Shown one piece after another: positions 45,349 to 63,567 of a stretch of 64,000 nt of DNA; within the stretch, counting starts at the first letter, position 1; each line of letters opens with the position of its first letter. The translations under genes and the position numbers were made by a program. Source of the stretch: Candidatus Omnitrophota bacterium. GTDB lineage: Bacteria; Omnitrophota; Gorgyraeia; Gygaellales; Profunditerraquicolaceae. Location of the stretch: positions 21,630 to 85,629 of the forward strand of contig JAQURC010000006.1 in NCBI GenBank assembly GCA_028715785.1. Direction: 5' to 3'. The notes under the pieces are model-generated. The model searched no databases and was not told the origin of the DNA. It saw nothing but the letters and a program-made list of their open reading frames with translations.

Positions 45349-45383
45349 ACACCCCGCGCTTATAAGGTATTGCGCGGGTATGG
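45349..45383. repeat. REP-like hairpin family R2 (ACACCCCGCGC-TTATAAGGTATT-GCGCGGGTAT), copy 1.
   Basis: ~10-bp GC-rich stem with a conserved 12-nt loop, starting 1 nt after the pstB stop. Further copies at 47899, 51208 (inverted) and 51287 (inverted). Confidence 0.7.
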
Positions 45384-46161: not shown

Positions 46162-46190
46162 TTGACCCCTCGTATTTAGTGGTATATAAT
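46162..46190 (+). promoter_or_regulatory. Sigma-70 promoter for the Lrp-family gene: TTGACC (46162-46167), 17 bp, TATAAT (46185-46190).
   Basis: Near-consensus -35, 17-bp spacer, perfect -10; ~70 nt before ATG 46261. Confidence 0.55.
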
Positions 46191-46260: not shown

Positions 46261-46746
46261 ATGGATGAGATTCTAGAAATTTTAGAAAAAGACGGCCGGG
46301 CAAGCGTGGAAGATATCGCTAAAATGACCCGCAAGAATCCGGAGGATGTAAAAAAGGCGATCAAGAAATACGAAAAAGAGGGGGCAATTTTAAAATATAA
46401 GGCGGTAATCAATAAGGATTTGATTAAGGACAATGAATCCGAGGTCAGGGCTTTAATTGAGGTGAATATCATCCCCCAGAAGGACCTGGGTTTTGAGAAA
46501 ATTGCCGAGCGTATCTATTCATTCCCCGAGGTAACCAGTTGTTATTTAATCAGCGGAACATATGATTTATTGGTGGTTGTCGAGGGCAAGAACCTGCATA
46601 CGGTTTCCAACTTTGTGGCGGAGAAGCTTTCCTGTTTAGAGAATGTCCGCGGCACAGCCACCCATTTTTTATTGAAAAAGTATAAGGAAGACGGAGTAAT
46701 TTTGAAGCAGAAAGCGGAGAACAAAAGGATAGCCATATCCTATTAA
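46261..46746 (+). CDS. Lrp/AsnC-family transcriptional regulator.
   Basis: N-terminal HTH (ILEILEKDGRASVEDIAKMTRKNPEDVKKAIKKYE) and C-terminal RAM/ACT-like domain (ALIEVNI..., TYDLLVVVEG). 161 aa. Confidence 0.75.
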   Translation: MDEILEILEKDGRASVEDIAKMTRKNPEDVKKAIKKYEKEGAILKYKAVINKDLIKDNESEVRALIEVNIIPQKDLGFEKIAERIYSFPEVTSCYLISGTYDLLVVVEGKNLHTVSNFVAEKLSCLENVRGTATHFLLKKYKEDGVILKQKAENKRIAISY

Positions 46747-47950: not shown

Positions 47951-48673
47951 ATGGCTGCTAAAAAAGACAATTTCCAGGTTTATGTAAAACAGATTGAGGC
48001 TATTTCAAAAGTGGCAAACCTGCTTACTTCCGGGATGTATTTGGAAGAGCTCCTGCGTTTAGTGGTGCAGGTTACCGCTGAAATTATGAACTCCAAAATT
48101 TCTTCTTTGATGCTGCTTGACCCGGAGAAAAAAGAGCTGGTGGTTAAAGCTACGCAGTCAATATCCGAGGCCTACAATAAAAAGCCTAATATCCGTTTAG
48201 GCGAAGGTATAGCCGGCATGGTTGCCCGGGAGAATAAGCCGATGTGTATCCTGGATGTTAAAAGCGATGCGCGCTATCTAAACCAGGATGTGGCTAAAAA
48301 AGAGGGCTTATGTTCTTTGGCTTGCGTGCCGTTGGCAGTCAAGGGAAGAGTCATCGGGGTACTCAACTGTTATACTTCTAAAAAGCACAAATTTTCTAAA
48401 CACGAATTGGATCTTTTGACGGCTCTGGCCAATCAGGCGGCCATTGCTATCGAAAACGCAGAGCTGGATTTACGCGTCCGCTCGGCAGAAGAGGCCCTGA
48501 CCATTCGTAAGCTGGTCGAGAGGGCAAAGGACATCCTTTCCCAGGAAGCAAACATTGCGCCTTCAGAAGCATACCGTTTGATCCAGAAGCAAAGTATGGA
48601 TATGCGAAAATCCATGCGCGAGGTGGCCGAGGCGATTATTCTGGCAAAAGATATAAGGACCAGGAAAAAATGA
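47951..48673 (+). CDS. GAF-ANTAR one-component RNA-binding antitermination regulator.
   Basis: N-terminal GAF-like domain (~aa 20-170). C-terminal ANTAR domain ending ...[45 protein letters not shown], matching the ANTAR helical signature. 4-nt overlap with nadE. Confidence 0.7.
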
Positions 48674-50381: not shown

Positions 50382-51062
50382 GTGCAATTCATGGAGTTAT
50401 TTCAAAAACTAATTAATATATTGCTTAATTTTGATACCCACCTTAGTGTCCTGATCCAGCAGTGCGGTTTGTGGACATATCTCATACTTTTCGGGGTTAT
50501 CTTTGCCGAGACCGGGTTTGTGGTAACGCCGTTTCTGCCCGGAGATTCGCTTCTTTTTGTGCTGGGCGCTTTTGCCGCGCAAGGGACATTCCATCCTTTT
50601 GTTTTGGCCGGCATCCTGATGTGCGCGGCAATATTGGGCGACAGTGTTAATTATGCCATTGGGAAATATTTGGGAAATCGCCTGGTCAACGCCAAACATA
50701 TCCCTTTTTTTAAGAAAGAGTACCTGGATCGCACCCATCACTTTTATAAAAAGTACGGCGGAAAAACTATTATTTTAGCCAGGTTTATACCCGTAGTACG
50801 GATGTTTGCGCCGTTTATAGCAGGAATCGTGCGTATGGATTACGCCAAATTCTTTATCTATAATGTAATCGGAGGCGTATTATGGGTGGCAATTTTTGTG
50901 TTCGGCGGTTTTTATTTCGGGAATATTCCTATTGTGAAAGAGAATTTTTCTTTAGTCGCGCTATTGATTATAGGTATTTCAATAATGCCGGTTATAATTG
51001 AATTTTTTAAAGCAAGAACAAGAATTAAGCAGGGAGCTAAATACGCCGCACCTTCGGAATGA
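50382..51062 (+). CDS. DedA-family membrane protein.
   Basis: Four or more TM segments with the DedA signature region (FGVIFAETGFVVTPFLPGDSLLF; YGGKTIILARFIPVVRMFAPFIAGI). Confidence 0.75.
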   Translation: MQFMELFQKLINILLNFDTHLSVLIQQCGLWTYLILFGVIFAETGFVVTPFLPGDSLLFVLGAFAAQGTFHPFVLAGILMCAAILGDSVNYAIGKYLGNRLVNAKHIPFFKKEYLDRTHHFYKKYGGKTIILARFIPVVRMFAPFIAGIVRMDYAKFFIYNVIGGVLWVAIFVFGGFYFGNIPIVKENFSLVALLIIGISIMPVIIEFFKARTRIKQGAKYAAPSE

Positions 51063-51129
51063 ATTTTAGTTGACAAATCCCTAAAATGTGTTAAACTTTA
51101 AATAGATTACAGCGTTGTAGTAAAAGACA

Positions 51130-51176
51130 CAGAAGTCTTCTGGCAGGAAAGTTTGCCCAGAAGGCTTTTTTATTTG
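51130..51176 (+). terminator. Rho-independent terminator after dedA (CTTCTGGC ... GCCCAGAAGGC + TTTTTTATTT).
   Basis: ~9-bp stem with one bulge followed by a T-run, 70 nt after the stop. Confidence 0.5.
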
Positions 51177-51186
51177 TCAGGACTAA

Positions 51187-51320
51187 GGCGTCCTTTGCCC
51201 ACCGGGGCACATCCGCGCAATACCTTATAAGCGCGGGGTGTACCCATATGGGGCCAAAGGACGTTTTTGTTTTCCACCACCTGGTGGACATCCGCGCAAT
51301 ACCTATTAGCGCGGGGTGTT
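51187..51320. repeat. Structured region with two inverted-orientation R2 hairpins (51208-51244 and 51287-51320). The first is nested in an outer stem GGCGTCCTTTGCCC / GGGCCAAAGGACG + TTTTTGTTTT. It precedes the sigma-factor gene.
   Basis: CACATCCGCGC-AATACCTTATAA-GCGCGGGGTGT and GACATCCGCGC-AATACCTATTA-GCGCGGGGTGT, the reverse complements of the 45349 family. The outer 13-bp inverted repeat plus T-run resembles a terminator. Confidence 0.65.
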
Positions 51321-51334
51321 ATGAGGATTAAAAT

Positions 51335-51853
51335 ATGAGTTTTGAAGAGCTGCACCAGAAACTGTCGCCGACAATCAAGCGGATTGCCTATAAGCTAAAC
51401 GGGCGTTATCGCTCCTTTAACCATGACGACCTGTATCAGGAGGCATCAATCCACCTTTGGAGCAATTTTCTAAAAGGAAAGCTTAGCGATAAGACCGAAA
51501 GCTATATCCTGCAGGGGTGTTATTTTCATCTGAAAAATTATATCCGTAAGGTGAATGAACGCTCCAATGTTATCAGTATTGATGCTACGTTGAGCGCGGA
51601 TGGGGCAACTATAGAGGATGTGTTGGGGAAATATTGGTCTTCTCCGGATTGCCGGGGGCAATTGCATAATATATTTTTAGCGCGGAGTATCCAGAATAAT
51701 GGTTTCAACCTCAAAGAAAAAAAGCTGCTTGCCTATTTCAGCCAGGGCCTGACTACCAGAGAGATAGGCAAGCGTATGGGGATCTCTCACGTTAGCGTAG
51801 TAAAGCTGATGCAGAAGGTTAGAGCCAGGGCCCAAAAACATTTGGATAAATAA
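51335..51853 (+). CDS. Small sigma-70-family / LuxR-type HTH protein (ECF-like sigma factor, 172 aa).
   Basis: Region-2-like segment (DDLYQEASIHLWSNF) and C-terminal region-4 HTH (LTTREIGKRMGISHVSVVKLMQKVR). Confidence 0.5.
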   Translation: MSFEELHQKLSPTIKRIAYKLNGRYRSFNHDDLYQEASIHLWSNFLKGKLSDKTESYILQGCYFHLKNYIRKVNERSNVISIDATLSADGATIEDVLGKYWSSPDCRGQLHNIFLARSIQNNGFNLKEKKLLAYFSQGLTTREIGKRMGISHVSVVKLMQKVRARAQKHLDK

Positions 51854-51920
51854 AAGAGATCCTTCGTTTGTAGATAAAAGCTTATTGTAGACTCAGGACA
51901 AATTTTGCTACGCAAAATTT

Positions 51921-51951
51921 GGTTACCAGATTTAAGCATTCTTTACTTGTA
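51921..51951 (+). promoter_or_regulatory. Conserved promoter/operator-like motif GGTTACCA-N11-TCTTTACTTGTA (copy 1 of 3), preceded by the perfect palindrome CAAATTTTGC-TAC-GCAAAATTTG (51899-51921).
   Basis: Same bipartite motif at 54591 and 56928, each upstream of a nitrogen-assimilation unit and each preceded by an A/T-rich tract. Confidence 0.55.
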
Positions 51952-51989
51952 GTGACGTAAGGCACATTGAAGTGTAAGATTTAAACATA

Positions 51990-52020
51990 GGCGTTCTATG
52001 AAAATAGAGCGCCTTTTTTA
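51990..52020 (+). terminator. Leader terminator/attenuator: GGCGTTCTAT-GAAA-ATAGAGCGCC + TTTTTTATT. Alternative hairpin CATAG-GCGTT-CTATG (51985-51999) overlaps its 5' arm.
   Basis: 10-bp stem, GNRA tetraloop, U-tract. It sits between the conserved motif and the RBS GGAAAGGAG of the OMP gene. Mutually exclusive alternative pairing is seen directly in the sequence. Confidence 0.6.
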
Positions 52021-52036
52021 TTCGGAAAGGAGAATA

Positions 52037-52864
52037 ATGGCGAAACGAATTGGATTGATTTTTGCGGTTTTCTGCGTCTTTGTTTTATCAAATGCGTACG
52101 CAACTCCTTCAACGCACATCTGGGCTCCGTCAACGGATATCCAGCCTTATAAGAAAATCCACGTTACCTCGGATTTTTATTTTCCCACGACCGGCAAAGG
52201 CACCAACGCCGATAATTACGATCAGCATAATTATGTCCAGCAGGTATACGGCCTTACCTTTAGTTTATTATCGGATAAACCGGAAGAGAATCTTTTAGGC
52301 AAACTCTGGCAGCCGCTGGGAAAGATTATGGCGGAGACCGGTTTTGATTATAAAAAGGGGTTTGGTTCTTTCTATGATTCGACTCCCTGGTATTTTCATT
52401 TTAAGTTCGGCATCCCCGAAGGTTATTCAAAATTTACCTGCCCGTTAGGCAGCGCGGATATGCCCGCAATCGCCGCGGGTATGTATGACATGGGAACCAG
52501 AAGCCACCGGACGAATTATAACGTTGCTTATGTTAAGGCCGCAAAGACCGTTAATCTAGGCAAGGTTAATCTGGGAAGGTTTTCCGCCGGTTATTTTAAG
52601 GGAAATGGCAGGCTGCTTAGGGGCAGGGATGGTTTGCGGGATAACGCCGGGCCGATGTTTGCCTGGGAACGCACAATGTGCGAGATAAGCCCGAAGTTAT
52701 GGCTGTGCGTGGATTATCAGGGCACGCAATCATCTTACGGAGCGATTAATTACGGTTTTGCCTGGAGTTTTACGCCGGACATCTCGGCGATCCTTGCGTA
52801 TGATATTTATAATAACCGTAATTTAACCGACACTATTACGCTTCAATTGGATATTAATTTCTAA
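52037..52864 (+). CDS. Outer-membrane beta-barrel protein, first gene of the amt operon. Start MAKRIGLIFAV... at 52037; the track's 51998 start lies inside the leader hairpin.
   Basis: Signal peptide ending SNAYA. Beta-strand-rich, ends ...LQLDINF (terminal Phe). RBS GGAAAGGAG 7 nt upstream. Confidence 0.55.
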   Translation: MAKRIGLIFAVFCVFVLSNAYATPSTHIWAPSTDIQPYKKIHVTSDFYFPTTGKGTNADNYDQHNYVQQVYGLTFSLLSDKPEENLLGKLWQPLGKIMAETGFDYKKGFGSFYDSTPWYFHFKFGIPEGYSKFTCPLGSADMPAIAAGMYDMGTRSHRTNYNVAYVKAAKTVNLGKVNLGRFSAGYFKGNGRLLRGRDGLRDNAGPMFAWERTMCEISPKLWLCVDYQGTQSSYGAINYGFAWSFTPDISAILAYDIYNNRNLTDTITLQLDINF

Positions 52865-52879
52865 CAGAGGAGGAGCCAA

Positions 52880-54106
52880 ATGAATTCAGGCGATACAGCA
52901 TGGGTGTTAATCTCATCAGCCCTGGTTTTACTGATGACCCCCGGCCTTGCTTTTTTCTACGGAGGCATGGTGCGGCGAAAAAATGTTTTAAGCGTTTTGA
53001 TGCAGTGTTTTATTATTATGTGTGTCTTAAGCCTGCAATGGGTTTTGATTGGTTATAGCTTATCATTTCATCCGGGAAATGGGTTTTGGGGAGGTCTGCA
53101 ATGGCTGGGTTTAAACGGAGTGGGGTTGGAGCCTTACGCGGATTACGCCGGCACAATTCCGCATCAGGCGTTTATGATCTTTCAGGCGATGTTCGCCATA
53201 ATTACTCCGGCTTTGATTATCGGCGCGTTTGCCGAGAGGATGAAATTTTCCGCGTTTCTGATTTTTACTCTGCTTTGGGCAACTTTTGTTTATGATCCGT
53301 TATGCCATTGGGTTTGGGGAATGGGCGGATGGTTAAGGAATTTAGGGGCAATGGATTTTGCCGGAGGAACTGTCGTGCATATTAATGCCGGTATTGCCGC
53401 TCTTGTTACGGCAATAGTATTAGGCAGAAGAGGTAATTTAGAAAAAAATGTGCCTACTCCGCATAATATGCCTTTCGTGGTTTTGGGCACAGGGCTCTTA
53501 TGGTTTGGCTGGTTTGGTTTTAATGCCGGAAGCGCTTTGGCGGCAAATGGATTAGCGGTAAACGCCTTTGTCGTAACCAATACTGCCGCCGCGGCTGCGG
53601 GATTAAGCTGGGCGTTGATTGAATGGATACGCAATGGCAAACCCACAATTTTCGGCGTATGTTCCGGGGCGGTCGCCGGGTTAGTCGCGATTACTCCGGC
53701 AGCCGGGTTTGTGGGCGTGGTTGCGGCGATAATTATCGGTTTATTAGTCAGCGTGATTTGTTTTATCGCTGTAACTGTGATTAAGCCTCTGTTCGGTTAT
53801 GATGATTCTCTTGATGCCTTCGGCGTGCATTGCGTAGGAGGGATTTGGGGGGCCTTGGCTACCGGATTATTCGCTTCAAAATTAGTTAACCCTGCCGGAG
53901 CCGACGGATTATTTTTTGGCAACCCCAAACAATTCCTAACACAGCTTTTAGCCGTAGCCGTAACTATTGTTTATACGGCGGTTGTAACATTCGTAATTTA
54001 TAAATTAGTGGATATTTTTGTCGGGGTCAGGGTGGATGAAAAATCCGAAGCTATTGGCTTGGACCTTACGCAGCATCGCGAGAGAGCGTATACGATATTA
54101 GAATGA
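52880..54106 (+). CDS. amtB: Ammonium transporter Amt.
   Basis: 11 TM helices. Amt signature blocks (DFAGGTVVHINAGIAALV, twin-His context GFNAGSAL ... GVHCVGGIWG). Confidence 0.85.
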   Translation: MNSGDTAWVLISSALVLLMTPGLAFFYGGMVRRKNVLSVLMQCFIIMCVLSLQWVLIGYSLSFHPGNGFWGGLQWLGLNGVGLEPYADYAGTIPHQAFMIFQAMFAIITPALIIGAFAERMKFSAFLIFTLLWATFVYDPLCHWVWGMGGWLRNLGAMDFAGGTVVHINAGIAALVTAIVLGRRGNLEKNVPTPHNMPFVVLGTGLLWFGWFGFNAGSALAANGLAVNAFVVTNTAAAAAGLSWALIEWIRNGKPTIFGVCSGAVAGLVAITPAAGFVGVVAAIIIGLLVSVICFIAVTVIKPLFGYDDSLDAFGVHCVGGIWGALATGLFASKLVNPAGADGLFFGNPKQFLTQLLAVAVTIVYTAVVTFVIYKLVDIFVGVRVDEKSEAIGLDLTQHRERAYTILE

Positions 54107-54113
54107 GAAACAT

Positions 54114-54168
54114 GGGGACGGTTCTATTTTTCCATAGCTAACCGTGTTCGAAAAATAGAACCGTCCCC
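54114..54168 (+). other. Long perfect hairpin family T2, copy 2 (GGGGACGGTTCTATTTTT-19 nt loop-AAAAATAGAACCGTCCCC) between amt and glnB.
   Basis: 18-bp perfect stem. Related to the terminator at 17289 (shared arms GGGGACGKTTCTATTTTT and loop start CATAGC). No strong U-tract, so probably a partial terminator or processing site. Confidence 0.5.
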
Positions 54169-54195
54169 AGGATTTTAAAAACTCGGGAGGTATAA

Positions 54196-54537
54196 ATGAA
54201 ATTAATTATTGCGATAATTCAACCCTATAAATTAGAAGAGGTAAAAGAAGAATTGTATAAAGCGGAAGTAAATCTAATTACGGTCAGTGAGGTTTTAGGC
54301 CACGGCCGCCAGAAGGGCCTGACCGAAGTTTACCGCGGCGCAAAGGAAACCGGAAATCTCCTGCGCAAAATCCGCCTTGAGATCGCGGTAAATGATAATT
54401 ATCTTGAGCCAACCATTAAAGCAATCGTCAAAGGTGCCAAAACCGGCGAAACCGGCGACGGAAAAATTTTTGTGCTGGATTTAAAAGAGTGTGTGCGTAT
54501 AAGGACTGAAGAGCGCGGAAGCTTGGCGATAGGATAG
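54196..54537 (+). CDS. glnB: Nitrogen regulatory protein P-II (GlnB/GlnK).
   Basis: 113 aa. [20 protein letters not shown]..., T-loop region GHGRQKG..YRGA, C-terminal GDGKIFV. Confidence 0.85.
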
Positions 54538-54545
54538 TAAAACAT

Positions 54546-54589
54546 GGGGGCTGTCCTCTTGAGAGGACCGTCCCCTATTTTAAAAATTT
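54546..54589 (+). terminator. Terminator hairpin after glnB (GGGGGCTGTCCTC-TTGA-GAGGACCGTCCCC) followed by the U-rich TATTTTAAAAATTT.
   Basis: Imperfect ~12-bp stem and U-rich tail, 9 nt after the stop. Confidence 0.5.
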
Positions 54590-54590
54590 A

Positions 54591-54621
54591 GGTTACCAAC
54601 GCTTTGTATTTCTTACTTGTA
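54591..54621 (+). promoter_or_regulatory. Conserved motif GGTTACCA-N11-TTCTTACTTGTA (copy 2), upstream of the GS type III gene. A weak hairpin plus U-tract (54643-54672) follows in the leader.
   Basis: Identical half-sites to the copies at 51921 and 56928. Leader contains GGGGC...GCCTC followed by TTTTATTTT. Confidence 0.55.
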
Positions 54622-54727
54622 ATTAGAGGACGGGGGCGTTCTGGGGCCTTAAAGAATGCCTCTTTTATTTTAACTTAATTGTGGTAAAATTAAACTTAAC
54701 GGAAGAATAGATAATCAGGAGGAAGGA

Positions 54728-56923
54728 ATGAGCATAAGACAGAAAGTTCTATTTAAAATTAAAAGCACCGAATTAGAAAAAATAGATTTTCCTAAAAAAG
54801 TTTCCTCTTATTTCGGCGTGAATACCTTTAGCACGGAAACTATGCAAAAGCATATTTCTAAAGGTACTTTTGAGGCATTCAAGACCTGGATGTCTGAAGG
54901 TAAAACCATAACTTTAGCGCAGGCAAACGAAATTGCCGATGCGATGAAGGAGTGGGCAATTGCCAAAGGCGCTACCTATTATACGCACTGGTTCCAGCCG
55001 ATGACCGGGCTTACCGCGGAAAAGCACGACAGCTTTATTTCGATAACCGCTCCGGGAAAAGTAATCGAAAAATTCTCGGGGAATAAATTAATCCAGGGGG
55101 AGCCGGATGCATCCAGCTTTCCTTCAGGAGGAATCCGGGCGACCTTTGAAGCCAGAGGTTATACTGCCTGGGATCCATCAAGTGCGGCGTTTATTATCGA
55201 AAGTACGCTTGGCAAAACTTTGTGTATCCCCACAATATTTATTTCTTACCACGGTGAAGCTTTAGACAAGAAGCTGCCGCTTTTGCGTTCGGATGAAGCG
55301 TTAAATAACGCCGCTTTAGGCCTGATTAAACTTTTCGGCCATAAAGATGTAAAAAAGATATTTTCTACCTGCGGTCCGGAGCAGGAATATTTCCTGATCG
55401 ATAAGAACTATTACAATTTACGCCAGGATTTGATCATGACCGGCCGGACCCTGGTTGGAGCGCCGTCTCCTAAAGGCCAGCAGTTAGAGGACCAGTATTT
55501 CGGCACGATTAAAGAGCGGGTGGTTAATTTTATGTTCGAGGTCGCTGAAGAGGCTTACAAGCTGGGCATACCGGTAATGACCCGGCACAATGAAGTTGCC
55601 CCGCATCAGTATGAATTTGCTCCGATATTCGAAGAATCAAATATCGCCGCCGATCACAATCAACTGCTTATGGAATTGATGAAAAAGATTGCCTTAAGGC
55701 ATGGGATGGTCTGCCTTTTGCATGAGAAACCTTTTGCCGGAATCAACGGCAGCGGAAAACACCTGAACTGGTCGCTGGCCGATGATAAAGGCAATAACCT
55801 GCTTAATCCCGGGCAGACTCCGGAGGATAACCTGCAGTTTTTGGCAGTTTTAGCCGCGGTATTAAGAGCGGTCTATCTGCACGCTGATCTCCTGCGTGCT
55901 TCGGTTGCCCTGGCTGGCAATGAACATCGCTTAGGCGCTAACGAGGCCCCTCCGGCCATTATCAGCGTATTTTTAGGCGAACAATTGACTTCGATCCTGG
56001 ACATGATTGAAAAAGGGGCTAAATCCAAAGTTTCTAAAAGCGACATTATCGATTTAGGGATAGGCCGCCTGCCCAAATTTAACAAGGATACAACCGATAG
56101 GAACCGCACCTCGCCTTTTGCCTTTACCGGGGCCAAATTTGAATTTCGCGCCGTCGGTTCATCGCAGAATATCTCCACACCCATCGCGGTAATCAATACC
56201 ATTATTGCTGAAAGCCTTGATTATGTTGCTGAGCAGATTAAAAAGGCCAAGTCCACGGGCAAGGATTTTAATTCCGCGGTATTGCTGGTAATCTCTAAGA
56301 TTGTTAAAGAGACCAAGGATATCCGCTTTGAAGGAAATAACTACGCGCAAGAGTGGATTAAAGAAGCTAAGAAACGGGGACTGCCGAACATCGCTTCGAC
56401 TTACCAGTCCCTGGAGGCTTTAACCAAAAAAGAGAATATCGCCCTTTTTGAGAAATACAAAGTCTTTTCTAAAGAAGAGCTGATCGCCCGTTACCATATC
56501 TGGATCCATATGTATAACCTGACCCTGGAAATCGAGGCCAATACCTTAAACGAAATGGTTAATGCTTCGGTAGTGCCGGCAGGTTATGAATATGAAAAAT
56601 TATTGGCGGCAAACCTGGACGCGTTAGTCAAATTACATAAAGACGCCAGCCTGAAAGTTGATAGCGGAGCGTTAAAAGACAAAAAGGATCATTTGGCTGA
56701 GATAGTTGCCAAGATTTATTATGTGCGCAGGAATGTCGGTGAAATGGTTAAGTTGCTTGAGGATGCCGGTAAACTAAACAACGAAAAACGCGCCGCGCTT
56801 TATTTTGATGAGCTTAAGCCTTTGATGGAGCATATTCGAAGGCACGTTGATCAGCTGGAATGCGTAGTTTCCGATGATGCCTGGGATCTGCCTAAGTATC
56901 GGGAAATGCTGTTCATAAAATAA
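54728..56923 (+). CDS. glnN: Glutamine synthetase type III (GlnN/GSIII).
   Basis: 731 aa, the characteristic GSIII length. GS catalytic-domain motifs (NGSGKHLNWS, EYEFAPIFEESN, AAVLRAVYLHADLLRAS, NRTSPFAFTGAKFEFRAVGSS). Confidence 0.8.
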   Translation: MSIRQKVLFKIKSTELEKIDFPKKVSSYFGVNTFSTETMQKHISKGTFEAFKTWMSEGKTITLAQANEIADAMKEWAIAKGATYYTHWFQPMTGLTAEKHDSFISITAPGKVIEKFSGNKLIQGEPDASSFPSGGIRATFEARGYTAWDPSSAAFIIESTLGKTLCIPTIFISYHGEALDKKLPLLRSDEALNNAALGLIKLFGHKDVKKIFSTCGPEQEYFLIDKNYYNLRQDLIMTGRTLVGAPSPKGQQLEDQYFGTIKERVVNFMFEVAEEAYKLGIPVMTRHNEVAPHQYEFAPIFEESNIAADHNQLLMELMKKIALRHGMVCLLHEKPFAGINGSGKHLNWSLADDKGNNLLNPGQTPEDNLQFLAVLAAVLRAVYLHADLLRASVALAGNEHRLGANEAPPAIISVFLGEQLTSILDMIEKGAKSKVSKSDIIDLGIGRLPKFNKDTTDRNRTSPFAFTGAKFEFRAVGSSQNISTPIAVINTIIAESLDYVAEQIKKAKSTGKDFNSAVLLVISKIVKETKDIRFEGNNYAQEWIKEAKKRGLPNIASTYQSLEALTKKENIALFEKYKVFSKEELIARYHIWIHMYNLTLEIEANTLNEMVNASVVPAGYEYEKLLAANLDALVKLHKDASLKVDSGALKDKKDHLAEIVAKIYYVRRNVGEMVKLLEDAGKLNNEKRAALYFDELKPLMEHIRRHVDQLECVVSDDAWDLPKYREMLFIK

Positions 56924-56927
56924 AAAG

Positions 56928-56958
56928 GGTTACCAAAACAGCCCTTTTCTTACTTGTA
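56928..56958 (+). promoter_or_regulatory. Conserved motif GGTTACCA-N11-TTCTTACTTGTA (copy 3), 5 nt after the glnN stop and upstream of the gltBD leader.
   Basis: Third exact occurrence of both half-sites with identical 11-nt spacing. Confidence 0.55.
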
Positions 56959-57001
56959 TATATAGACACGCTGTTGTGTTTATCATAACGAATAGAACGT
57001 A

Positions 57002-57052
57002 GACGTTCATGCTGGCTAAAACTGTTTTTTGCCAAAATGAACGTCTTTTTTT
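57002..57052 (+). terminator. Leader terminator: GACGTTCAT ... ATGAACGTC + TTTTTTTG. Alternative upstream hairpin GAACG-TAGA-CGTTC (56995-57008) overlaps its 5' arm.
   Basis: 9-bp stem with internal substructure and a 7-T run. It lies between the conserved motif and gltB. The ORF track's ATG at 57037 lies inside the 3' arm. Confidence 0.55.
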
Positions 57053-57084
57053 GTCAACAGCCATGCCTAAAGTTTGGGCATAAT

Positions 57085-57468
57085 ATGATTACTATAGTTA
57101 TTACCGAAGATGAAACAAAGGCAAAAGAGGCTTTGGCTAAGATGTTAAAGCAGGAGGGGTACACTTTATCCCCGGATACAAGCCGGGAAAATGTAATCCG
57201 CGTCGTGAAAAAGGATTGTATAAGGGACCTGGCTTTTATCAAAGACAGGGTAGTGGAATTAGAAAATTCATTGTTTATTGAAAAAAAGGGAGTATTGTAT
57301 AAATCCGTTTTGGAGGCAATCGAGAAACCTTTGCTTGAACAGACGCTAGAGCGTTGTGAAGGCAACCAGCTTAAAGCCGCCCGCATCCTGGGGATTAACC
57401 GCAACACCATGCGGGCCAAAATTAACAAATTAGGTATTGATGTTTCAAGGTGGAAAATAAATTTATGA
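57085..57468 (+). CDS. Small Fis-type HTH protein (like the C-terminal DNA-binding domain of NtrC-family activators, without receiver or AAA+ domains). Start uncertain: 57085 or 57037.
   Basis: C-terminus LEQTLERCEGNQLKAARILGINRNTMRAKINKLGI is the Fis/NtrC HTH signature. The preceding ~80 aa have no sigma-54 activator motifs (no GAFTGA, no Walker A). Confidence 0.5.
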   Translation: MITIVITEDETKAKEALAKMLKQEGYTLSPDTSRENVIRVVKKDCIRDLAFIKDRVVELENSLFIEKKGVLYKSVLEAIEKPLLEQTLERCEGNQLKAARILGINRNTMRAKINKLGIDVSRWKINL

Positions 57469-60400
57469 AACAGGCGCGTTTACCAAAAAAGCAGGGTCTA
57501 TACGACCCGCGGTTTGAGCATGATTCCTGCGGAGTAGGGTTTGTTTGCAATATCAAAGGCAAGAAAAGCCATGATATTGTTAAGCAGGGGCTGGAGGTTT
57601 TACGGCGCTTAAGCCACCGCGGAGCAACCGGCGCGGACCCTAAAACCGGTGACGGCGCGGGCCTGCTTATCCAGTTTCCTCATGAATTTTTTGTATCGAT
57701 ATGCGCGAAAGAAAAGATCAATCTGCCTAAAGAAGGTGAATATGCCTCAGGGTTAGTCTTCCTGCCGCAGGATGCCAAAGAGCGCAGGTTTTGTAAAGAG
57801 GCCTTTGAGAAAATAATTAATAGCGAAGGGCAGTTATTTTTGGGCTGGCGTAATGTACCGGTAGATAATTCTGATATCGGCCAGAGCGCCAAAGACACCC
57901 AGCCGGTGATCGAGCAGATATTTATTGGCGCTGCTGCGGTGTCATTGCGAGCCCCGAAGGGGCGAAGCAATCCAAAAGAGATTGCTTCGTCGCCTGCGGC
58001 TCCTGGCAATGACAATTTAGATAACCTGGCTTTTGAAAGAAAGCTTTATGTTATTCGTAGGCAGGTTGAAAATATTATCCGCGCCTCCAAAATAAAACAA
58101 AAAACATCTTTCTATATTCCCAGCTTGTCCGGCCGCACATTTATCTATAAGGGCCTGCTTATGCCGCATCAGGTAGAAAACTTCTTTTTGGATTTAAGTT
58201 CCCAGGAAATTAAAAGCGCTTTAGCCATGGTCCATTCGCGTTACTCTACCAATACTTTTCCCACCTGGGACCTCTCTCAACCGTTTAGATTTATCGCCCA
58301 TAACGGAGAGATCAATACTTTAAGGGGCAATATTAATTGGATGCGTGCCCGCCAAAACTTCTTAAAGAGCCAATTATTCGGCCAAGACTTAAAGAAAATA
58401 TTTCCGGTAATTGTTCCGGGCGGCAGTGATTCGGCGGCCATTGATAATGTTTTTGAGCTCCTGACCTTGTCCGGCAGAAGCCTGACGCAGGCAATCTCGA
58501 TGCTCATACCGGCTGCTTGGGAACAGAATAACCTGCTTACCCAGGAGGTAAGGGCTTTTCATAAATACCACACCTGTCTTATTGAGCCCTGGGACGGCCC
58601 GGCAGCCATGGTTTTTACTGACGGGATATCTATCGGAGCAGTGCTTGACCGTAACGGATTGCGGCCCTGCCGTTATATTGTTACCAAAGATGATTTTGTG
58701 GTGATGGCCTCCGAAGTAGGAGTTTTAGATATCGATCCTGCCAAGATCCTTCATTCAGGACGGCTTGAGCCGGGCAAGGCATTTTTTATCGATACCAAAG
58801 CCGGGTGCATAATTGAAGACAGCCGGATAAAAAAAGAGCTCAGCGAAGATAAGCCATACGATCAATGGGTTAAGAAGAATATACTGGAGTTAGACAGTTT
58901 AAAAGACAGAGGACAGAAGACAGAAGATAGAGGACAGAGGAGAGAAACAAATATTTTGACCCAATTAAAGGTTTTTGGTTATACCCGCGAAGATCTGAAA
59001 ATGATTATTAAGCCGATGGCTGAAAATGCCCAGGAACCGGTGGGCTCGATGGGCAATGATACCCCGCACGCCGTACTTTCAACCAGGCCGCAACTCTTGT
59101 TTTCCTATTTTAAACAATTATTCGCCCAGGTAACTAACCCTCCGATTGATCCTATCCGTGAGGAGCTGGTGATGAGCCTGGCCAGTTATTTGGGCCCGGA
59201 AAAGAATATTTTAAGCGATGGAGAGGACCACTGCCATAAATTATTAGTAAAACAGCCGATTTTAAACGACGCGGAATTAAAGAAAATCAGAAAAATTAGA
59301 ACAAGCGGATTTAGGACTAAAACAATCTCCATAAATTTTAAGATTTCCGAAAAGGACGCCTTCAAAAGGACATTGGAGAGAATACGTAAAGAGGCAGAGC
59401 AGGCGATATCCGCCAAAGGCGGATCCCTGCCTGTCCGGCAGGCAGGCGCCTCCGGCGGAAAAAAAGGCTATACTTTTATTATTTTAAGCGACCGCGGAGT
59501 GAATAAAGATTATGCCGCTATTCCCAGCCTCCTGGCGGTTTCAGCGCTGCACCATTATCTGGTGCGCCGTTCTTTGCGCACGCAGATCAGCATTATTTTA
59601 GAGAGCGCCGAGCCCCGCGAAGTAAATCATTTTGCCCTGCTTTTTGCCTACGGAGTTGATTGTGTTAATCCGTATCTTGTATTTGGCGCCTTGGAAAAGA
59701 TGGCTAAAGAGAAAGAATTGAACCTTGGCGCCGAGAAGGCAAAGCATAATTACATAAAAGCCATCGACAAAGGGATACTCAAAGTCCTTTCCAAGATGGG
59801 CATCTCGACTTTACAGAGTTACCGCGGGGCCCAGATTTTTGAAGCGGTGGGATTAAATAAAAGCGTAATTGATGAATATTTCACCGGCACAGTTTCCCGG
59901 ATTAACGGCGCATCTTTAGGGGTAATTGTTAAAGAAACTATTCTGCGCCATAAGGAGGCTTTTGCCGTAAGGAGCCAAGGCGAAAATCATCTGGCTTCCG
60001 GCGGCCTTTATCAGTGGAGGCGCGACGGAGAATTCCATCTCTGGAACCCGGACACGATTGCCGCTTTGCAGGATGCCGCGCGCAATAATGATGCCAAAAA
60101 ATATCAGGAGTTTGCCAGCTTAATTAATGATCAGTCAAAAAATCCGACTACTCTAAGAAGCCTGCTAAAATTTAAAATACAAAAATCTATCCCGCTAAGT
60201 GAAGTTGAGCCGGTTGAAGAAATTGTAAAAAGGTTTGCTACCGGGGCGATGAGTTTTGGCTCAATCAGCCGCGCCACGCATGAAACGATTGCTATCGCCA
60301 TGAATAGGTTAGGTGGAAGGTCTAATACTGGAGAGGGCGGCGAAGACCCCGCGCGTTTTGTTCCGTTGCCTGGCGGAGATTCTGCCAGAAGCGCGATAAA

Positions 60401-62132
60401 GCAGGTTGCCTCCGGGCGTTTCGGCGTAACCACGAATTATTTAGTTAATGCCGATGAAATCCAGATAAAAATGGCCCAAGGCGCAAAACCCGGCGAGGGC
60501 GGCCAGCTTCCCGGGCATAAGGTAAGCGCGATAATCGCCAAGACCCGCTATACTACCCCGGGAGTTACTTTGATTTCCCCGCCTCCGCACCATGATATAT
60601 ATTCAATCGAAGATTTAGCGCAGCTTATCTTTGACCTAAAAAACGCAAATCCCAAAGCGCGGATTAGCGTAAAATTAGTTTCTGAAATCGGCGTAGGCAC
60701 GGTAGCCGCGGGTGTGGCTAAAGGGCATGCCGATATGATCCTTATTTCCGGCCAGGACGGAGGCACCGGAGCTTCTCCTTTGAGTTCAATTAAACACGCC
60801 GGACTTCCCTGGGAGCTGGGGCTTTCCGAAACGCACCAGACTTTAGTCTTAAATGATTTAAGGAGCAGGGTGCGCCTGCAGAGTGACGGCCAGATGCGCA
60901 CCGGACGGGATGTGGCGATTGCCGCAATGCTTGGCGCCGAAGAGTTCGGTTTCTGCACCGCGGTATTAATCGTGTTGGGATGCGTGATGCTGCGTCATTG
61001 TAATTTAAATAATTGTTCGGTAGGGATTGCTACCCAAGATGAGATCCTGGAAAAAAGATTTACCGGCCGGCCGGAATATATTATTAATTATTTTACCTTT
61101 ATCGCCGATGAACTGCGCCAGATCATGAGCTCTTTAGGCATAAAAAAATTAGAGGATATGGTCGGCAGGGTGGATCTGCTGGAATTGAATCAGGAGATTT
61201 TACCCTGGAAGGCAAAAGAAATCGATTTTTCTAAAATCCTTTATAAACCTCAGGTGCCGGAGTCAGTAATTACGCATTATTGTAAAAAACAGGACCATGG
61301 TATTGATAAGATTCTGGATTTAAAGTTGATTGAATTATCCGAGCCGGCATTGGCAGAAGCTAAAAACGTGGAAATAAATCAAAAGATCGAAAACGTAAAC
61401 CGCGCCACCGGGGCAATGTTAAGCGGGGAGGTTTGCCGGCGGTTTGGCGAAAGCGGGCTGCCCGAAGATACGATTAAATGTAATTTTAAAGGGGTGGCCG
61501 GCCAAAGCTTCGGGGCTTTTTTGGCCAAAGGGATAACTTTTGCCCTGGAAGGCATGGCTAATGATTATGTGGGCAAAGGGATATCCGGAGGTAAAATTAT
61601 AATTTATCCGGATAAAAAAGTTGATTACAAACCGGATGAAAATATTATTATCGGCAACACTACTTTCTACGGGGCAATCAACGGAGAGGCATATATACGG
61701 GGGGTTGCCGGAGAGAGGTTCTGTATCCGGAATTCCGGGTTAAATGCGGTTATTGAGGGTTTGGGAGACCACGGTTGTGAATATATGACCGGAGGAAGGG
61801 TGGTTGTCCTGGGAAAATGCGGCAGGAATTTCGGGGCAGGGATGTCCGGGGGGATTGCCTATTGTCTGGATGAAAGAAGAGATTTTAAGAAAAAATGTAA
61901 TTTGGAGATGGTGGCTTTGGAGAAAATAAATGCCCAAGACGCAGAGACGATCAAAAACCTGCTGTTTAACCACCGCAAATACACGCAAAGCTTTAAAGCC
62001 AAAGAGATTCTCGATGATTTTCATAAGTATGCCAATCTTTTTGTCAAAGTCATGCCTTTGGAATACAAACGTATATTGGAAGAAAAAAAGGCTGTTGGGA
62101 AGGCTGACCTGGGAGAATATACTGATGGGTGA
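57450..62132 (+). CDS. gltB: Glutamate synthase large subunit GltB (1560 aa), carrying an in-frame family-M repeat insertion and a low-complexity linker insert.
   Basis: Ntn amidotransferase start HDSCGVGFVCN. Central and FMN domains (GGKKGYTFIILSDRG, FGVTTNYLVNADEIQIKMAQGAKPGEGGQLPG, ISGQDGGTGASP). C-terminal GXGXG beta-helix (GAINGEAYIRGVAGERF). Confidence 0.9.
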   Translation: MENKFMKQARLPKKQGLYDPRFEHDSCGVGFVCNIKGKKSHDIVKQGLEVLRRLSHRGATGADPKTGDGAGLLIQFPHEFFVSICAKEKINLPKEGEYASGLVFLPQDAKERRFCKEAFEKIINSEGQLFLGWRNVPVDNSDIGQSAKDTQPVIEQIFIGAAAVSLRAPKGRSNPKEIASSPAAPGNDNLDNLAFERKLYVIRRQVENIIRASKIKQKTSFYIPSLSGRTFIYKGLLMPHQVENFFLDLSSQEIKSALAMVHSRYSTNTFPTWDLSQPFRFIAHNGEINTLRGNINWMRARQNFLKSQLFGQDLKKIFPVIVPGGSDSAAIDNVFELLTLSGRSLTQAISMLIPAAWEQNNLLTQEVRAFHKYHTCLIEPWDGPAAMVFTDGISIGAVLDRNGLRPCRYIVTKDDFVVMASEVGVLDIDPAKILHSGRLEPGKAFFIDTKAGCIIEDSRIKKELSEDKPYDQWVKKNILELDSLKDRGQKTEDRGQRRETNILTQLKVFGYTREDLKMIIKPMAENAQEPVGSMGNDTPHAVLSTRPQLLFSYFKQLFAQVTNPPIDPIREELVMSLASYLGPEKNILSDGEDHCHKLLVKQPILNDAELKKIRKIRTSGFRTKTISINFKISEKDAFKRTLERIRKEAEQAISAKGGSLPVRQAGASGGKKGYTFIILSDRGVNKDYAAIPSLLAVSALHHYLVRRSLRTQISIILESAEPREVNHFALLFAYGVDCVNPYLVFGALEKMAKEKELNLGAEKAKHNYIKAIDKGILKVLSKMGISTLQSYRGAQIFEAVGLNKSVIDEYFTGTVSRINGASLGVIVKETILRHKEAFAVRSQGENHLASGGLYQWRRDGEFHLWNPDTIAALQDAARNNDAKKYQEFASLINDQSKNPTTLRSLLKFKIQKSIPLSEVEPVEEIVKRFATGAMSFGSISRATHETIAIAMNRLGGRSNTGEGGEDPARFVPLPGGDSARSAIKQVASGRFGVTTNYLVNADEIQIKMAQGAKPGEGGQLPGHKVSAIIAKTRYTTPGVTLISPPPHHDIYSIEDLAQLIFDLKNANPKARISVKLVSEIGVGTVAAGVAKGHADMILISGQDGGTGASPLSSIKHAGLPWELGLSETHQTLVLNDLRSRVRLQSDGQMRTGRDVAIAAMLGAEEFGFCTAVLIVLGCVMLRHCNLNNCSVGIATQDEILEKRFTGRPEYIINYFTFIADELRQIMSSLGIKKLEDMVGRVDLLELNQEILPWKAKEIDFSKILYKPQVPESVITHYCKKQDHGIDKILDLKLIELSEPALAEAKNVEINQKIENVNRATGAMLSGEVCRRFGESGLPEDTIKCNFKGVAGQSFGAFLAKGITFALEGMANDYVGKGISGGKIIIYPDKKVDYKPDENIIIGNTTFYGAINGEAYIRGVAGERFCIRNSGLNAVIEGLGDHGCEYMTGGRVVVLGKCGRNFGAGMSGGIAYCLDERRDFKKKCNLEMVALEKINAQDAETIKNLLFNHRKYTQSFKAKEILDDFHKYANLFVKVMPLEYKRILEEKKAVGKADLGEYTDG
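57939..58016. repeat. MITE/REP-like family M, copy 4, inserted in-frame within gltB (encodes AAVSLRAPKGRSNPKEIASSPAAPGND).
   Basis: GTGTCATTGCGAGCCCCGAAGGGGCGAAGCAATCCAAAAGAGATTGCTTCGTCGCCTGCGGCTCCTGGCAATGACAAT. Same terminal and internal inverted repeats as the intergenic copies. 78 nt, which is 26 codons, with no stop. Confidence 0.8.
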
Positions 62133-63567
62133 TCCAAAAGGATTCTTAAAAGTTAAAAGACAGCCCGGGACATACCGTCTGGTTTGCGAAAGAATAAAAG
62201 ATTTCGCCGAAGTTAATTTATTGCGGACTGAATTTCAAAACAAGGAGCAGGCATCGCGCTGTATGGATTGCGGCACGCCTTTTTGCCACTCCGGCTGCCC
62301 CATCGGTAATTATATACCGGAATGGAATGACCTTGTTTTTGCCGGCCAGTGGGAAAAGGCCTTTAGTTTACTTAACGCCACCAATAACCTTCCGGAAATT
62401 ACCGGAAGGATTTGCCCTGCGCTTTGTGAATATGCCTGTGTTTTGGGGATCAATGATGACCCGGTAACGATTCGGGAAAACGAATTGAGTATTATCGAGT
62501 ATGCCTTTAAGAATGATTTAATCCAGCCGCGAATTTTAAGCAAGAGGACAGGAAAAAAAATAGCCGTAGTCGGTTCCGGGCCGGCAGGCCTGGCCTGCGC
62601 CGACCAGCTGAATTGCGCCGGGCATAAGGTTGTGGTTTTTGAAAGGGATGATGCCATTGGAGGAATTTTGCGTTATGGGATCCCCGAGTTTAAGCTGGAG
62701 AAGAAAATAATCGACCGCCGGATAAAGATCCTGCAAAAGGAAGGGATAAAATTTAAAACGAATGTTGATGTAGGCGCGGATTTATCCGCGCGAAAATTGT
62801 TGCGGGAGTTTGACGCGGTTTGTATTGCCTGCGGGTCGCGGCAGCCGCGGGACCTGCATATTGAGGGCAGAAACCTTTCCGGCATCCATTTTGCCATGGA
62901 TTATTTGATTCAATCCAATAAAAGGATAAAAGGAGAGAGGATACCGGATGATTTATTGATTGACGCAAAGGATAAGCGCGTAGCGGTGATCGGCGGAGGA
63001 GATACCGGAGCAGATTGCGTGGGAGTGGCGCATCGGCAAGGCGCATCCTGCGTTACGCAGATCGAGATTATGCCTAAACCCGCCTCCTGCCGCACTAAAG
63101 ATTACCCCTGGCCAAAGTATCCTTTATTGCTTAAATCTTCGACCAGCCATGAAGAAGGCGGACAAAGAGATTGGTCAATATTAACCAAAAAATTTACCGG
63201 CTCAAGCGGAAAGGTAAAAAAACTTTCCTGCGCAAGGGTGGAGTTTAAAAAAGATGCCGCGGGGTGCCCGGTCATGCAGGAAGTAAGGGATTCGGAGTTT
63301 GAAATCGAAACCGACCTGGTGATTCTGGCTTTGGGTTTTTTGCACCCTGAGAAAAAAGGGATAATCGAGGAACTCAGATTGGATTTGGATCAAAAGGGAA
63401 ATGTAAAAACAAGCGATAATTTTATGACTTCTAACGAAGGCCTGTTTGCCTGTGGAGATATGCGCCGCGGCCAATCCCTGATTGTCTGGGCAATTGCCGA
63501 AGGCAGGCGCGCTGCCCACTATATCGACAAATACCTTATGGGTGATTCAATCCTGCCGGTGTTATAA
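62125..63567 (+). CDS. gltD: Glutamate synthase small subunit GltD (NADPH-dependent). Start MGDPKGF at 62125 (8-nt overlap with gltB); the track's 61930 extension is rejected.
   Basis: N-terminal Fe-S cysteine clusters ([17 protein letters not shown]; CPALCEYAC). FAD/NADPH Rossmann motifs [12 protein letters not shown] and [14 protein letters not shown]-terminal [18 protein letters not shown]. Confidence 0.9.

Follow-up and report, generated by a model that had tools for sequence, protein, structure and literature searches.

The 64-kb stretch of DNA analysed here (contig JAQURC010000006.1 of a Candidatus Omnitrophota bacterium; hereafter the window, to which all positions refer) carries three copies of a bipartite motif, GGTTACCA-N11-TYYTTACTTGTA, in front of its genes for ammonium transport, glutamine synthetase (GS) and glutamate synthase (GOGAT). 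We propose that these copies are promoters read by a small sigma factor encoded beside them, which resembles the extracytoplasmic function (ECF) sigma factors, and that they belong to a nitrogen module in which this sigma factor, a GAF-ANTAR antiterminator and the sigma-dependent promoters form a feed-forward AND gate. On the sequence comparisons set out below, we put the probability of this reading at roughly 0.7. It is also rather probable, if somewhat less so, that the sigma factor represents an undescribed, nitrogen-dedicated family with an invariant promoter, which would replace sigma54/NtrC-type control in Omnitrophota and in Syntrophorhabdales- or Syntrophaceae-like Desulfobacterota, with the GAF-ANTAR protein licensing both the synthesis of the sigma factor and all of its transcripts.

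A bipartite motif upstream of nitrogen-assimilation genes

A search of the window tolerating up to three mismatches found the motif at exactly three sites, 51921-51951, 54591-54621 and 56928-56958, all on the forward strand and all without mismatches, while no site was found in 100 dinucleotide shuffles (chance expectation 0). The exact 9-mer TTACTTGTA was confined to the same three sites, and three of the four occurrences of GGTTACCA in the window lie within them. The three exact copies with an invariant 11-nt spacer, which an initial annotation of this DNA had reported from the sequence, were thus reproduced. Copy 1 precedes operon 1 (52037-54537), which encodes a putative, porin-like outer-membrane protein without a family match (52037-52864), the ammonium transporter Amt (52880-54106) and the PII protein (glnB, 54196-54537). 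Copy 2 precedes the gene for a type III GS (54728-56923; Pfam GSIII_N, 1.9e-74), and copy 3 precedes operon 3 (57085-63567), composed of a 127-aa Fis-type helix-turn-helix (HTH) protein (57085-57468, with 57085 as its true start), GltB (57450-62132) and GltD (open reading frame 61930-63567, true start uncertain). All of these genes lie on the forward strand.

Scanning one genome per species for GGTTACCA-N11-TNNTTACTTGTA returned at least 119 loci from about 100 assemblies or species. Among the matches listed, the hosts were mostly Candidatus Omnitrophota, with a few metagenome-assembled genomes (MAGs) labelled Syntrophaceae, delta proteobacterium, Planctomycetia, Firestonebacteria or Elusimicrobia. 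The same matches contained 132 exact sites, nearly all of them 5′ of nitrogen genes; the first gene downstream encoded a porin-like protein, Amt, PII, GS (type III or type I), the Fis-type HTH protein followed by GltB, a GAF-ANTAR protein, a GATase1 protein, NifH or Hcp. This distribution bears out the earlier view of the motif as a dedicated nitrogen-regulon element, not a general repeat. We also found 37 further sites with one to three mismatches 5′ of other nitrogen operons in the same loci, their variation being confined to motif positions 1, 2, 20 and 23. In GC-rich genomes (57-64% GC), which belong to Syntrophorhabdales- or Syntrophaceae-like MAGs, the T-tract was lost and the core GGTTACCA-N16-ACTTGTA was retained. 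The comparison with relatives that the initial annotation had suggested therefore finds the motif at orthologous loci and also in a second phylum.

Matches in Bacteroidota (L047, L078 and L116) were set aside as chance occurrences with neither nitrogen context nor leader. A mobile element or repetitive extragenic palindromic (REP)-like repeat was likewise rejected as an explanation, since the motif occurs at nitrogen genes only, always in the orientation of the gene, and with an unconserved spacer. The motif was found 5′ of nifH in one Omnitrophota MAG (L079:3002) and 5′ of a prismane/Hcp gene (hydroxylamine reductase-like) in another (L001, reverse strand), so that in some species the regulon would be wider than ammonium assimilation. 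Two Omnitrophota MAGs carry a copy 5′ of the GAF-ANTAR gene itself (L036:5816 and L084:4095), an arrangement by which the sigma factor and the antiterminator would be joined in positive feedback.

The initial annotation had also drawn attention to A/T-rich flanks and to a palindrome at copy 1. Upstream of the motif nothing is conserved save a short A-tract. The palindrome (CAAATTTTGC-tac-GCAAAATTTG, 51899-51921) is present and shares the first G of motif copy 1, and it is specific to the window: it was rejected as part of the conserved element because relatives lack it and have the stop codon of the sigma gene abutting the motif at that place. At copy 3, the spacer region (56923-56948) can pair AAAAGGG with CCCUUUU to give a weak terminator-like hairpin directly 3′ of the GS III stop codon, a pairing that is not conserved in relatives.

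Promoter geometry and the adjacent sigma factor

The position of the motif relative to what follows it suggests that it is a promoter. Position 37, six nucleotides past the end of the motif, was occupied by a purine in 112 of the 130 sites considered among the matches listed, with a T before it, and in the short GS leaders only 6-8 nt separate the motif from a hairpin that has to be part of the transcript. The start site would therefore lie just downstream, and ACTTGTA and GGTTACCA would be placed near -10 and -35, respectively. Transcription is predicted to start about 6 nt 3′ of the motif, which corresponds to positions near 51957 for the porin-like/amt/glnB operon, 54627 for GS type III and 56964 for the Fis-HTH/gltB/gltD operon. 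Copy 2 lies directly 3′ of the glnB terminator (54546-54581, forward strand) and thus opens a new transcription unit.

Neither a housekeeping promoter nor a classical nitrogen promoter was recognised at these sites. Set against the housekeeping consensus, the motif agrees at 4/6 positions in the upstream hexamer (TTACCA/TTGACA) and at 2/6 in the downstream hexamer (TACTTG/TATAAT), with a spacer of 15 nt; a scan of the window for TTGACA-(16-18)-TATAAT did not report the motif sites and identified good promoters at 46162, before the Lrp gene, and at 51070, before the sigma gene. The initial annotation had stated that no sigma54 -24/-12 element or NtcA site was to be found near these genes, and consensus searches of the promoter regions agree. 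With up to two mismatches allowed, TGGCAC-N5-TTGC gave 24 matches in the window against 27 expected, none of them in the three promoter regions, and no GTA-N8-TAC site (centre near -41.5) was found in the intergenic intervals 51854-52036, 54538-54727 and 56924-57084.

The proposed reader of the motif is a 172-aa protein of the sigma-70 family (51335-51853, forward strand) that consists of the two domains sigma2 and sigma4 and lacks regions 1.1 and 3. It matched the NCBIfam sigma70-ECF model TIGR02937 with 50.1 bits (cut-off 42.9) over residues 3-170, scored just under the cut-off of Pfam Sigma70_r2 (22.9 vs 24), and fell far short of the cut-off of every named ECF subfamily in NCBIfam. Homologues of 170-180 aa with 73-95% identity formed about 985 clusters, and a second branch of 752 clusters, its members 189-233 aa long as called, came from GC-rich Syntrophorhabdales-, Syntrophorhabdus- and Syntrophaceae-like genomes. 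Residues in region 2.3/2.4 (SYILQGCYFHLKNY) and in region 4.2 (SHV..VK) are invariant, in parallel with the invariant promoter boxes.

The sigma gene and the motif were found together with great regularity. In the loci selected by the motif, 50 of 51 sigma genes had a copy within -40 to +300 nt of their stop codon. We then assembled an unbiased set of 80 metagenome loci fetched by sigma homology alone (50-84% identity), 76 of which had enough downstream DNA; the motif was present with at most two mismatches at the sigma stop codon in 75 of these, and with a 1-nt shift in the 76th. This adjacency, in loci collected blind to the motif, supports the earlier suggestion that the promoter may be read by the adjacent sigma factor, a specificity that we infer. 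The motif often overlaps the sigma stop codon or sits in C-terminal Gly-Tyr-Gln codons. Loci with the -35 box over the end of the sigma gene include L017, L062, L094, L115 and most of L121-L189, in which either GGT-TAC-CAx codes for Gly-Tyr-Gln or motif position 1 is supplied by the A of the TAA stop codon; the latter accounts for the frequent A at that position. In three GC-rich loci (L204, L207 and L208) the Amt, PII and GS operons 3′ of the sigma gene carry the core motif. The sigma gene is itself preceded, about 220 nt upstream, by CGTTACCA-N16-ACTTGTA in L018, L205 and L206, a predicted case of ECF-style autoregulation.

Leader terminators and the GAF-ANTAR protein

According to the initial annotation each motif copy was followed by a leader terminator, making the promoter one that is coupled to attenuation. 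All three leaders do fold as intrinsic terminators with a U-run, the second at 54632-54663 and not at 54643-54672 as first given, and a terminator was found in 157 of 168 motif-linked leaders. What had been missed is that these terminators are of the ANTAR type. Leader 1 (51962-52020) contains two short hairpins with hexanucleotide loops, P1 (51962-51975, GCAC-AUUGAA-GUGU) and P2 (51984-51995, AAC-AUAGGC-GUU), separated by a linker of 8 nt; the GGCGUUC of P2 is also the 5′ arm of the terminator, which spans 51989-52014, has a GAAA loop and is followed by a U-run at 52015-52020 (fold z=-4.5). Leader 3 (56966-57052) has the same layout, with P1 at 56966-56979 (ACAC-GCUGUU-GUGU), P2 at 56995-57008 (GAAC-GUAGAC-GUUC), a linker of 15 nt and a terminator at 57001-57045 followed by a U-run at 57046-57052 (fold z=-5.0). 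Leader 2 (54628-54672) is shorter, with one hexaloop hairpin (54628-54641, GGAC-GGGGGC-GUUC) overlapping the terminator and a U-run extending to 54672; similar short leaders were seen in relatives, for example L020, L044 and L071. All three leaders are on the forward strand.

An ANTAR target has been described as two stem-loops in tandem whose stems have at least 3 bp and whose loops are hexanucleotides, joined by a linker of 2-25 nt (PMC8164766), and two such stem-loops are present in leader 1, in leader 3 and in the leader of the sigma gene. The loops of leader 1 (AUUGAA and AUAGGC) and of the sigma leader (AGCGUU and ACAGAA) have A at loop position 1 (A1) and G at loop position 4 (G4), and those of leader 3 (GCUGUU and GUAGAC) retain G4 with a G at position 1, which is A in relatives. 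These hexaloop and A1/G4 features agree with the published definition of ANTAR targets (PMC3369931, PMC8164766).

The same features recur widely. Among the 168 motif-linked leaders, a hexaloop hairpin lay over the 5′ arm of the terminator in 140, with A1 in 107 and G4 in 121 of these overlapping hairpins. We aligned 98 non-redundant leaders next to sigma genes with MAFFT, without reference to structure, and folding of this alignment by RNAalifold recovered P1 and the terminator with compensatory changes. P1 was paired in 97.9% and its covariation score was 0.201 vs 0.143 in shuffled alignments, a value reached by 0/500 shuffles, and all slid controls scored lower; P2 is a nearly invariant helix of 3 bp. 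The consensus loops were A-U-U-G-A-A for P1 and A-N-A-G-G-C for P2, A1 and G4 being found in 76 and 96 of the 98 leaders for P1 and in 79 and 92 for P2. A covariance model built from this alignment had only four matches in the 64-kb window, namely the three leaders and the sigma leader: leader 1, itself in the seed, scored 72 bits, the sigma leader gave E=5.5e-4 and leader 3 E=7.8e-4, and leader 2 was weak (E=0.2). No further ANTAR-type leader was found in the window by regular expression or by covariance model, for example before the Lrp/aminotransferase/GAF-ANTAR/NadE operon, and an Rfam search of 50900-57500 at permissive thresholds gave chance-level matches alone, with no family for the leaders.

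Several variations on these leaders were noted in relatives. Many porin/amt leaders have a second tandem attenuator (AAGAC-GCAGGC-GUCUUU plus terminator, for example in L123, L142, L157 and L188, located in columns ~245-262 of alignment A3), where leader 1 of the window has one. Long GS leaders (L010, L021, L049, L075, L087 and others) have two UAGGCA boxes around P1, in the arrangement uUAGGCAC-AUUGUA-GUGyaaaaUUAGGCA, which are reminiscent of the Geobacter GnfR site CAGGCAA and are lacking in the short form found in the window.

The dual hexaloops and the overlap of P2 with the terminator link the leaders to the GAF-ANTAR protein of the window (240 aa; 47951-48673, forward strand; Pfam GAF_2 1.7e-25, ANTAR 6.5e-16). 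The initial annotation had merely listed it among the regulators nearby, a list that was confirmed. It is the candidate antiterminator for all of the leaders, whose RNAs it is predicted to bind. The GAF part is most similar to the GAF domains of NifA and PtsP, which sense 2-oxoglutarate or glutamine, and sequence matches in the PDB include the ANTAR proteins 1s8n and 4akk (NasR). Where relatives had upstream coverage, the immediate 5′ neighbour of the sigma gene was mostly the GAF-ANTAR gene, as it also is in the GC-rich branch, where the protein has two GAF domains.

The sigma gene was correctly placed near the motif in the initial annotation, which overlooked the sigma70-type promoter of this gene (TTGACA-16-TAAACT, extended by TG, 51070-51097) and its two attenuators, all on the forward strand. 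Attenuator 1 (51108-51175) consists of P1 (51108-51119, UAC-AGCGUU-GUA), a 6-nt linker, P2 (51126-51137, GAC-ACAGAA-GUC) and a terminator at 51132-51168 followed by a U-run. Attenuator 2 (51180-51273) has a hexaloop hairpin at 51180-51193 (GGAC-UAAGGC-GUCC) that overlaps a long terminator at 51185-51266, into the loop of which a REP-like hairpin is inserted, with a U-run at 51264-51273. Of the unbiased loci, 68 had enough upstream DNA for a survey of these elements: TTGAC[AT] was found within 300 nt 5′ of the sigma gene in 58, GAC-NNNGNN-GTC in 65, GGAC-NNNGGC-GTCC in 47 and a U-run in 66. Orphan sigma genes in GC-rich genomes also retain sigma-leader elements. With the sigma gene placed behind a sigma70-type promoter and two attenuators, the system would therefore be a cascade.

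The remaining features of the region are given here. Lrp is encoded at 46261-46746, and the genes 5′ of the sigma gene in the window are those for Lrp, an aminotransferase, the GAF-ANTAR protein, NadE and a DedA/VTT protein. The REP-like hairpin, ACAYCCGCGCAATACCT(T)ATWAGCGCGGGGTGT, has three copies: at 51209-51241 (forward) in the loop of the second terminator of the sigma leader, at 51283-51320 (forward) just 5′ of the sigma start codon, and at 45349-45381 (reverse) between pstB and phoU. In L008, L011, L029, L031 and L032 the leaders equivalent to that of the sigma gene contain hairpins built alike but with another sequence, GGCACACC-N5-AATCCTATA-N5-GGTGT. A further, very stable hairpin of about 20 bp without a U-run (54104-54177; -37.7 kcal/mol, z=-5.2) separates the stop codon of amt from the start codon of glnB and may act in processing or stability between the two cistrons; one of its arms, ACATGGGGAC, is similar to the arm of the glnB terminator at 54543-54575. 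The order of the Fis-type HTH gene and gltB is kept in relatives, with a small HTH protein of the Fis/NtrC type (75-143 aa) conserved directly 5′ of gltB and 3′ of a motif copy. Besides 57085-57468, it was seen at L006, L016, L020, L034, L040, L118 and other loci, and its N-terminal ~50 residues show a weak likeness to a truncated receiver domain.

Proposed circuit, alternatives and relation to known systems

In the circuit that we propose, the sigma gene would be transcribed from its ordinary TTGACA/TAAACT promoter, and because its leader contains two tandem terminators with ANTAR-type hexaloops, completion of its mRNA would require active GAF-ANTAR protein. Low nitrogen is the presumed signal, with 2-oxoglutarate and/or glutamine sensed by the NifA/PtsP-like GAF domain. 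The sigma factor would bring core RNA polymerase to GGTTACCA (-35)-N16-ACTTGTA (-10), with a start about 6 nt downstream, and would thereby drive porin-amt-glnB, GS type III and fis-gltBD. Each target transcript would then meet a leader terminator again and, as the 5′ arm of that terminator is shared with P2, the antiterminator would be required for a second time. The outcome would be a coherent feed-forward AND gate.

Several observations weigh against this circuit. The AlphaFold2 model of the sigma factor had a pLDDT (predicted local distance difference test score) of 58 with the sigma4 part alone confident; this low-confidence model is all-helical with four helices per half, and its best Foldseek matches were all sigma factors but not significant (E>0.02). 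No anti-sigma gene was found among the neighbours of the sigma gene (GAF-ANTAR, NadE and DedA; porin and Amt) at about 40 loci, a co-transcribed anti-sigma being common among ECFs, though not universal. Unlike a classical ECF gene, the sigma gene of the window has no copy of its own motif upstream, and most relatives also have TTGACA-16-TAAACT there. Neither GGTTACCA nor ACTTGTA looks like the AAC and CGT boxes that are usual for ECF promoters, and because the sigma factor and the Fis-type HTH protein both co-occur with the motif, co-occurrence by itself does not pinpoint the sigma factor. Together with the orphan sigma genes located away from nitrogen genes (L202 and L209), the sigma70-type promoter of the sigma gene and the atypical boxes would suit a different account, which we consider unlikely: that the motif is a real nitrogen promoter read by another sigma factor, or by the housekeeping sigma factor with an activator, the adjacent sigma factor being a mere neighbour or a member of the regulon with other targets. 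Such an account has to contend with the adjacency of sigma gene and motif in 76/76 usable unbiased loci, with the passage of sigma family and motif together into a second, GC-rich phylum, and with the autoregulatory copies 5′ of the sigma gene in L018, L205 and L206. The boxes are moreover a poor housekeeping fit, with good canonical promoters close by, and no activator site is conserved 5′ of the motif.

We regard it as improbable that the motif serves mainly as an operator or activator site for the Fis-type HTH protein or Lrp, bound through the direct TTAC repeats that lie 20 bp apart at motif positions 3-6 and 23-26. The conservation of the Fis-type HTH gene in the regulon before gltB, and the similarity of its HTH to those of Fis and NtrC, speak for such a role, but NtrC/Fis-type HTH dimers bind inverted repeats, whereas those of the motif are direct. 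RNA hairpins that start 6-8 nt after the motif place its boxes at -35/-10, and no other conserved element is left to act as the promoter; in addition, motif and adjacent sigma gene are both retained at GC-rich loci L204, L207 and L208, where the stretch fetched has no Fis-type HTH gene. Lower still do we rate the prospect that the leader terminators are under some non-ANTAR control, such as a riboswitch, a PII-dependent factor or constitutive attenuation, with the hexaloops incidental. It would accommodate leader 2, which lacks P1 and has G, not A, at loop position 1, and so departs from the two-hairpin pattern that EutV-type binding needs; P2 is so short and so nearly invariant that covariation says little about it, and ANTAR binding to these leaders is deduced from features of their sequence. 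Incidental hexaloops are nevertheless hard to reconcile with the recurrence of A1/G4 hexaloops, linker length and P2-terminator overlap in ~140 leaders, and with the same signature in the sigma leaders of two phyla. The leaders belong to no Rfam family, the GAF-ANTAR gene is nearby and is syntenic in most relatives, and documented ANTAR regulons in other bacteria include PII, Amt, GS and GOGAT (PMC3369931). Initiation by the sigma factor with GAF-ANTAR antitermination remains our preferred reading.

We found nothing relevant in the literature on the motif or on ECF/ANTAR control of ammonium transporter genes in Omnitrophota, and this wiring of nitrogen control appears not to have been described previously. 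Nitrogen control is a textbook example of regulatory diversity (sigma54/NtrC, NtcA, GlnR, TnrA and AmtR), to which double gating by a sigma factor and an ANTAR protein would, if true, add a new architecture. It would also give Omnitrophota, to our knowledge a widespread phylum with essentially no cultured representatives, its first regulatory circuit that can be predicted in detail. As the promoter is invariant, it offers a ready marker for nitrogen-regulated genes in MAGs, flagging here porins, nifH, hcp and the GATase1 protein. A compact and highly specific sigma-promoter pair could serve as an orthogonal expression part, and the GAF-ANTAR protein offers a tractable candidate sensor that would respond directly to 2-oxoglutarate or glutamine and act on RNA.

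The genes under control (amt, glnB, GS and GOGAT) are those governed elsewhere by sigma54/NtrBC, NtcA, GlnR/TnrA and AmtR. Unlike in these classical systems, sigma54 and NtcA cis elements are absent, and control would consist of a change of sigma factor together with antitermination at the RNA level. With the ECF sigma factors of group 4 the predicted sigma factor shares its sigma2 and sigma4 domains, a size of ~170 aa, a stringent and conserved bipartite promoter (as proposed) beside the sigma gene, and autoregulatory copies in some lineages (L205 and L206). It differs from them in having no anti-sigma partner that we could find, in the mostly housekeeping-type promoter and transcription attenuation of its gene, and in promoter boxes without the AAC/CGT signature.

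The leaders resemble the targets of known ANTAR systems (EutV/eut of Enterococcus, NasR/nasF and AmiR) in their two short hexaloop hairpins with A1 and G4, their short linker, and the sharing of the second hairpin with an intrinsic terminator. Predicted ANTAR regulons in other bacteria cover the nitrogen genes for PII, Amt, GS and GOGAT (Ramesh et al. 2012, PMC3369931), the same targets as here, again with an ANTAR-domain protein encoded nearby. The hosts here are Omnitrophota and Syntrophorhabdales-like bacteria, whereas the published ANTAR-target predictions that we consulted concern Firmicutes, Proteobacteria and Actinobacteria. Compared with known ANTAR systems, the sensor domain is GAF and not REC, NIT or an AmiC-partnered module, the leader of GS III has a single hairpin, and the antiterminator would also gate the mRNA of the sigma factor that drives the same operons.

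The closest documented logic is that of the GnfL/GnfM and GnfK/GnfR cascade of Geobacter sulfurreducens, in which the enhancer-binding protein GnfM, acting at sigma54 -24/-12 promoters, turns on GnfR, an ANTAR response regulator (Ueki and Lovley 2010, PMC2995071). The idea that GnfM might bind a similar site at sigma70-type promoters was dropped, as those promoters are RpoN-dependent (PMC2995071). Both the Geobacter system and the one proposed here combine dedicated initiation with ANTAR-type antitermination at leader terminators in a cascade, and in both a conserved recognition sequence lies by the GC-rich arm of the terminator, CAGGCAANGGCGCC in Geobacter and ANAGGCGUUC here. Unlike in Geobacter, there is no -24/-12 element in the Omnitrophota promoters, where initiation appears to need the small ECF-like sigma factor, and the ANTAR protein carries a GAF domain in place of a two-component receiver. 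The order of the cascade would also be reversed, with the ANTAR protein controlling the initiation factor.

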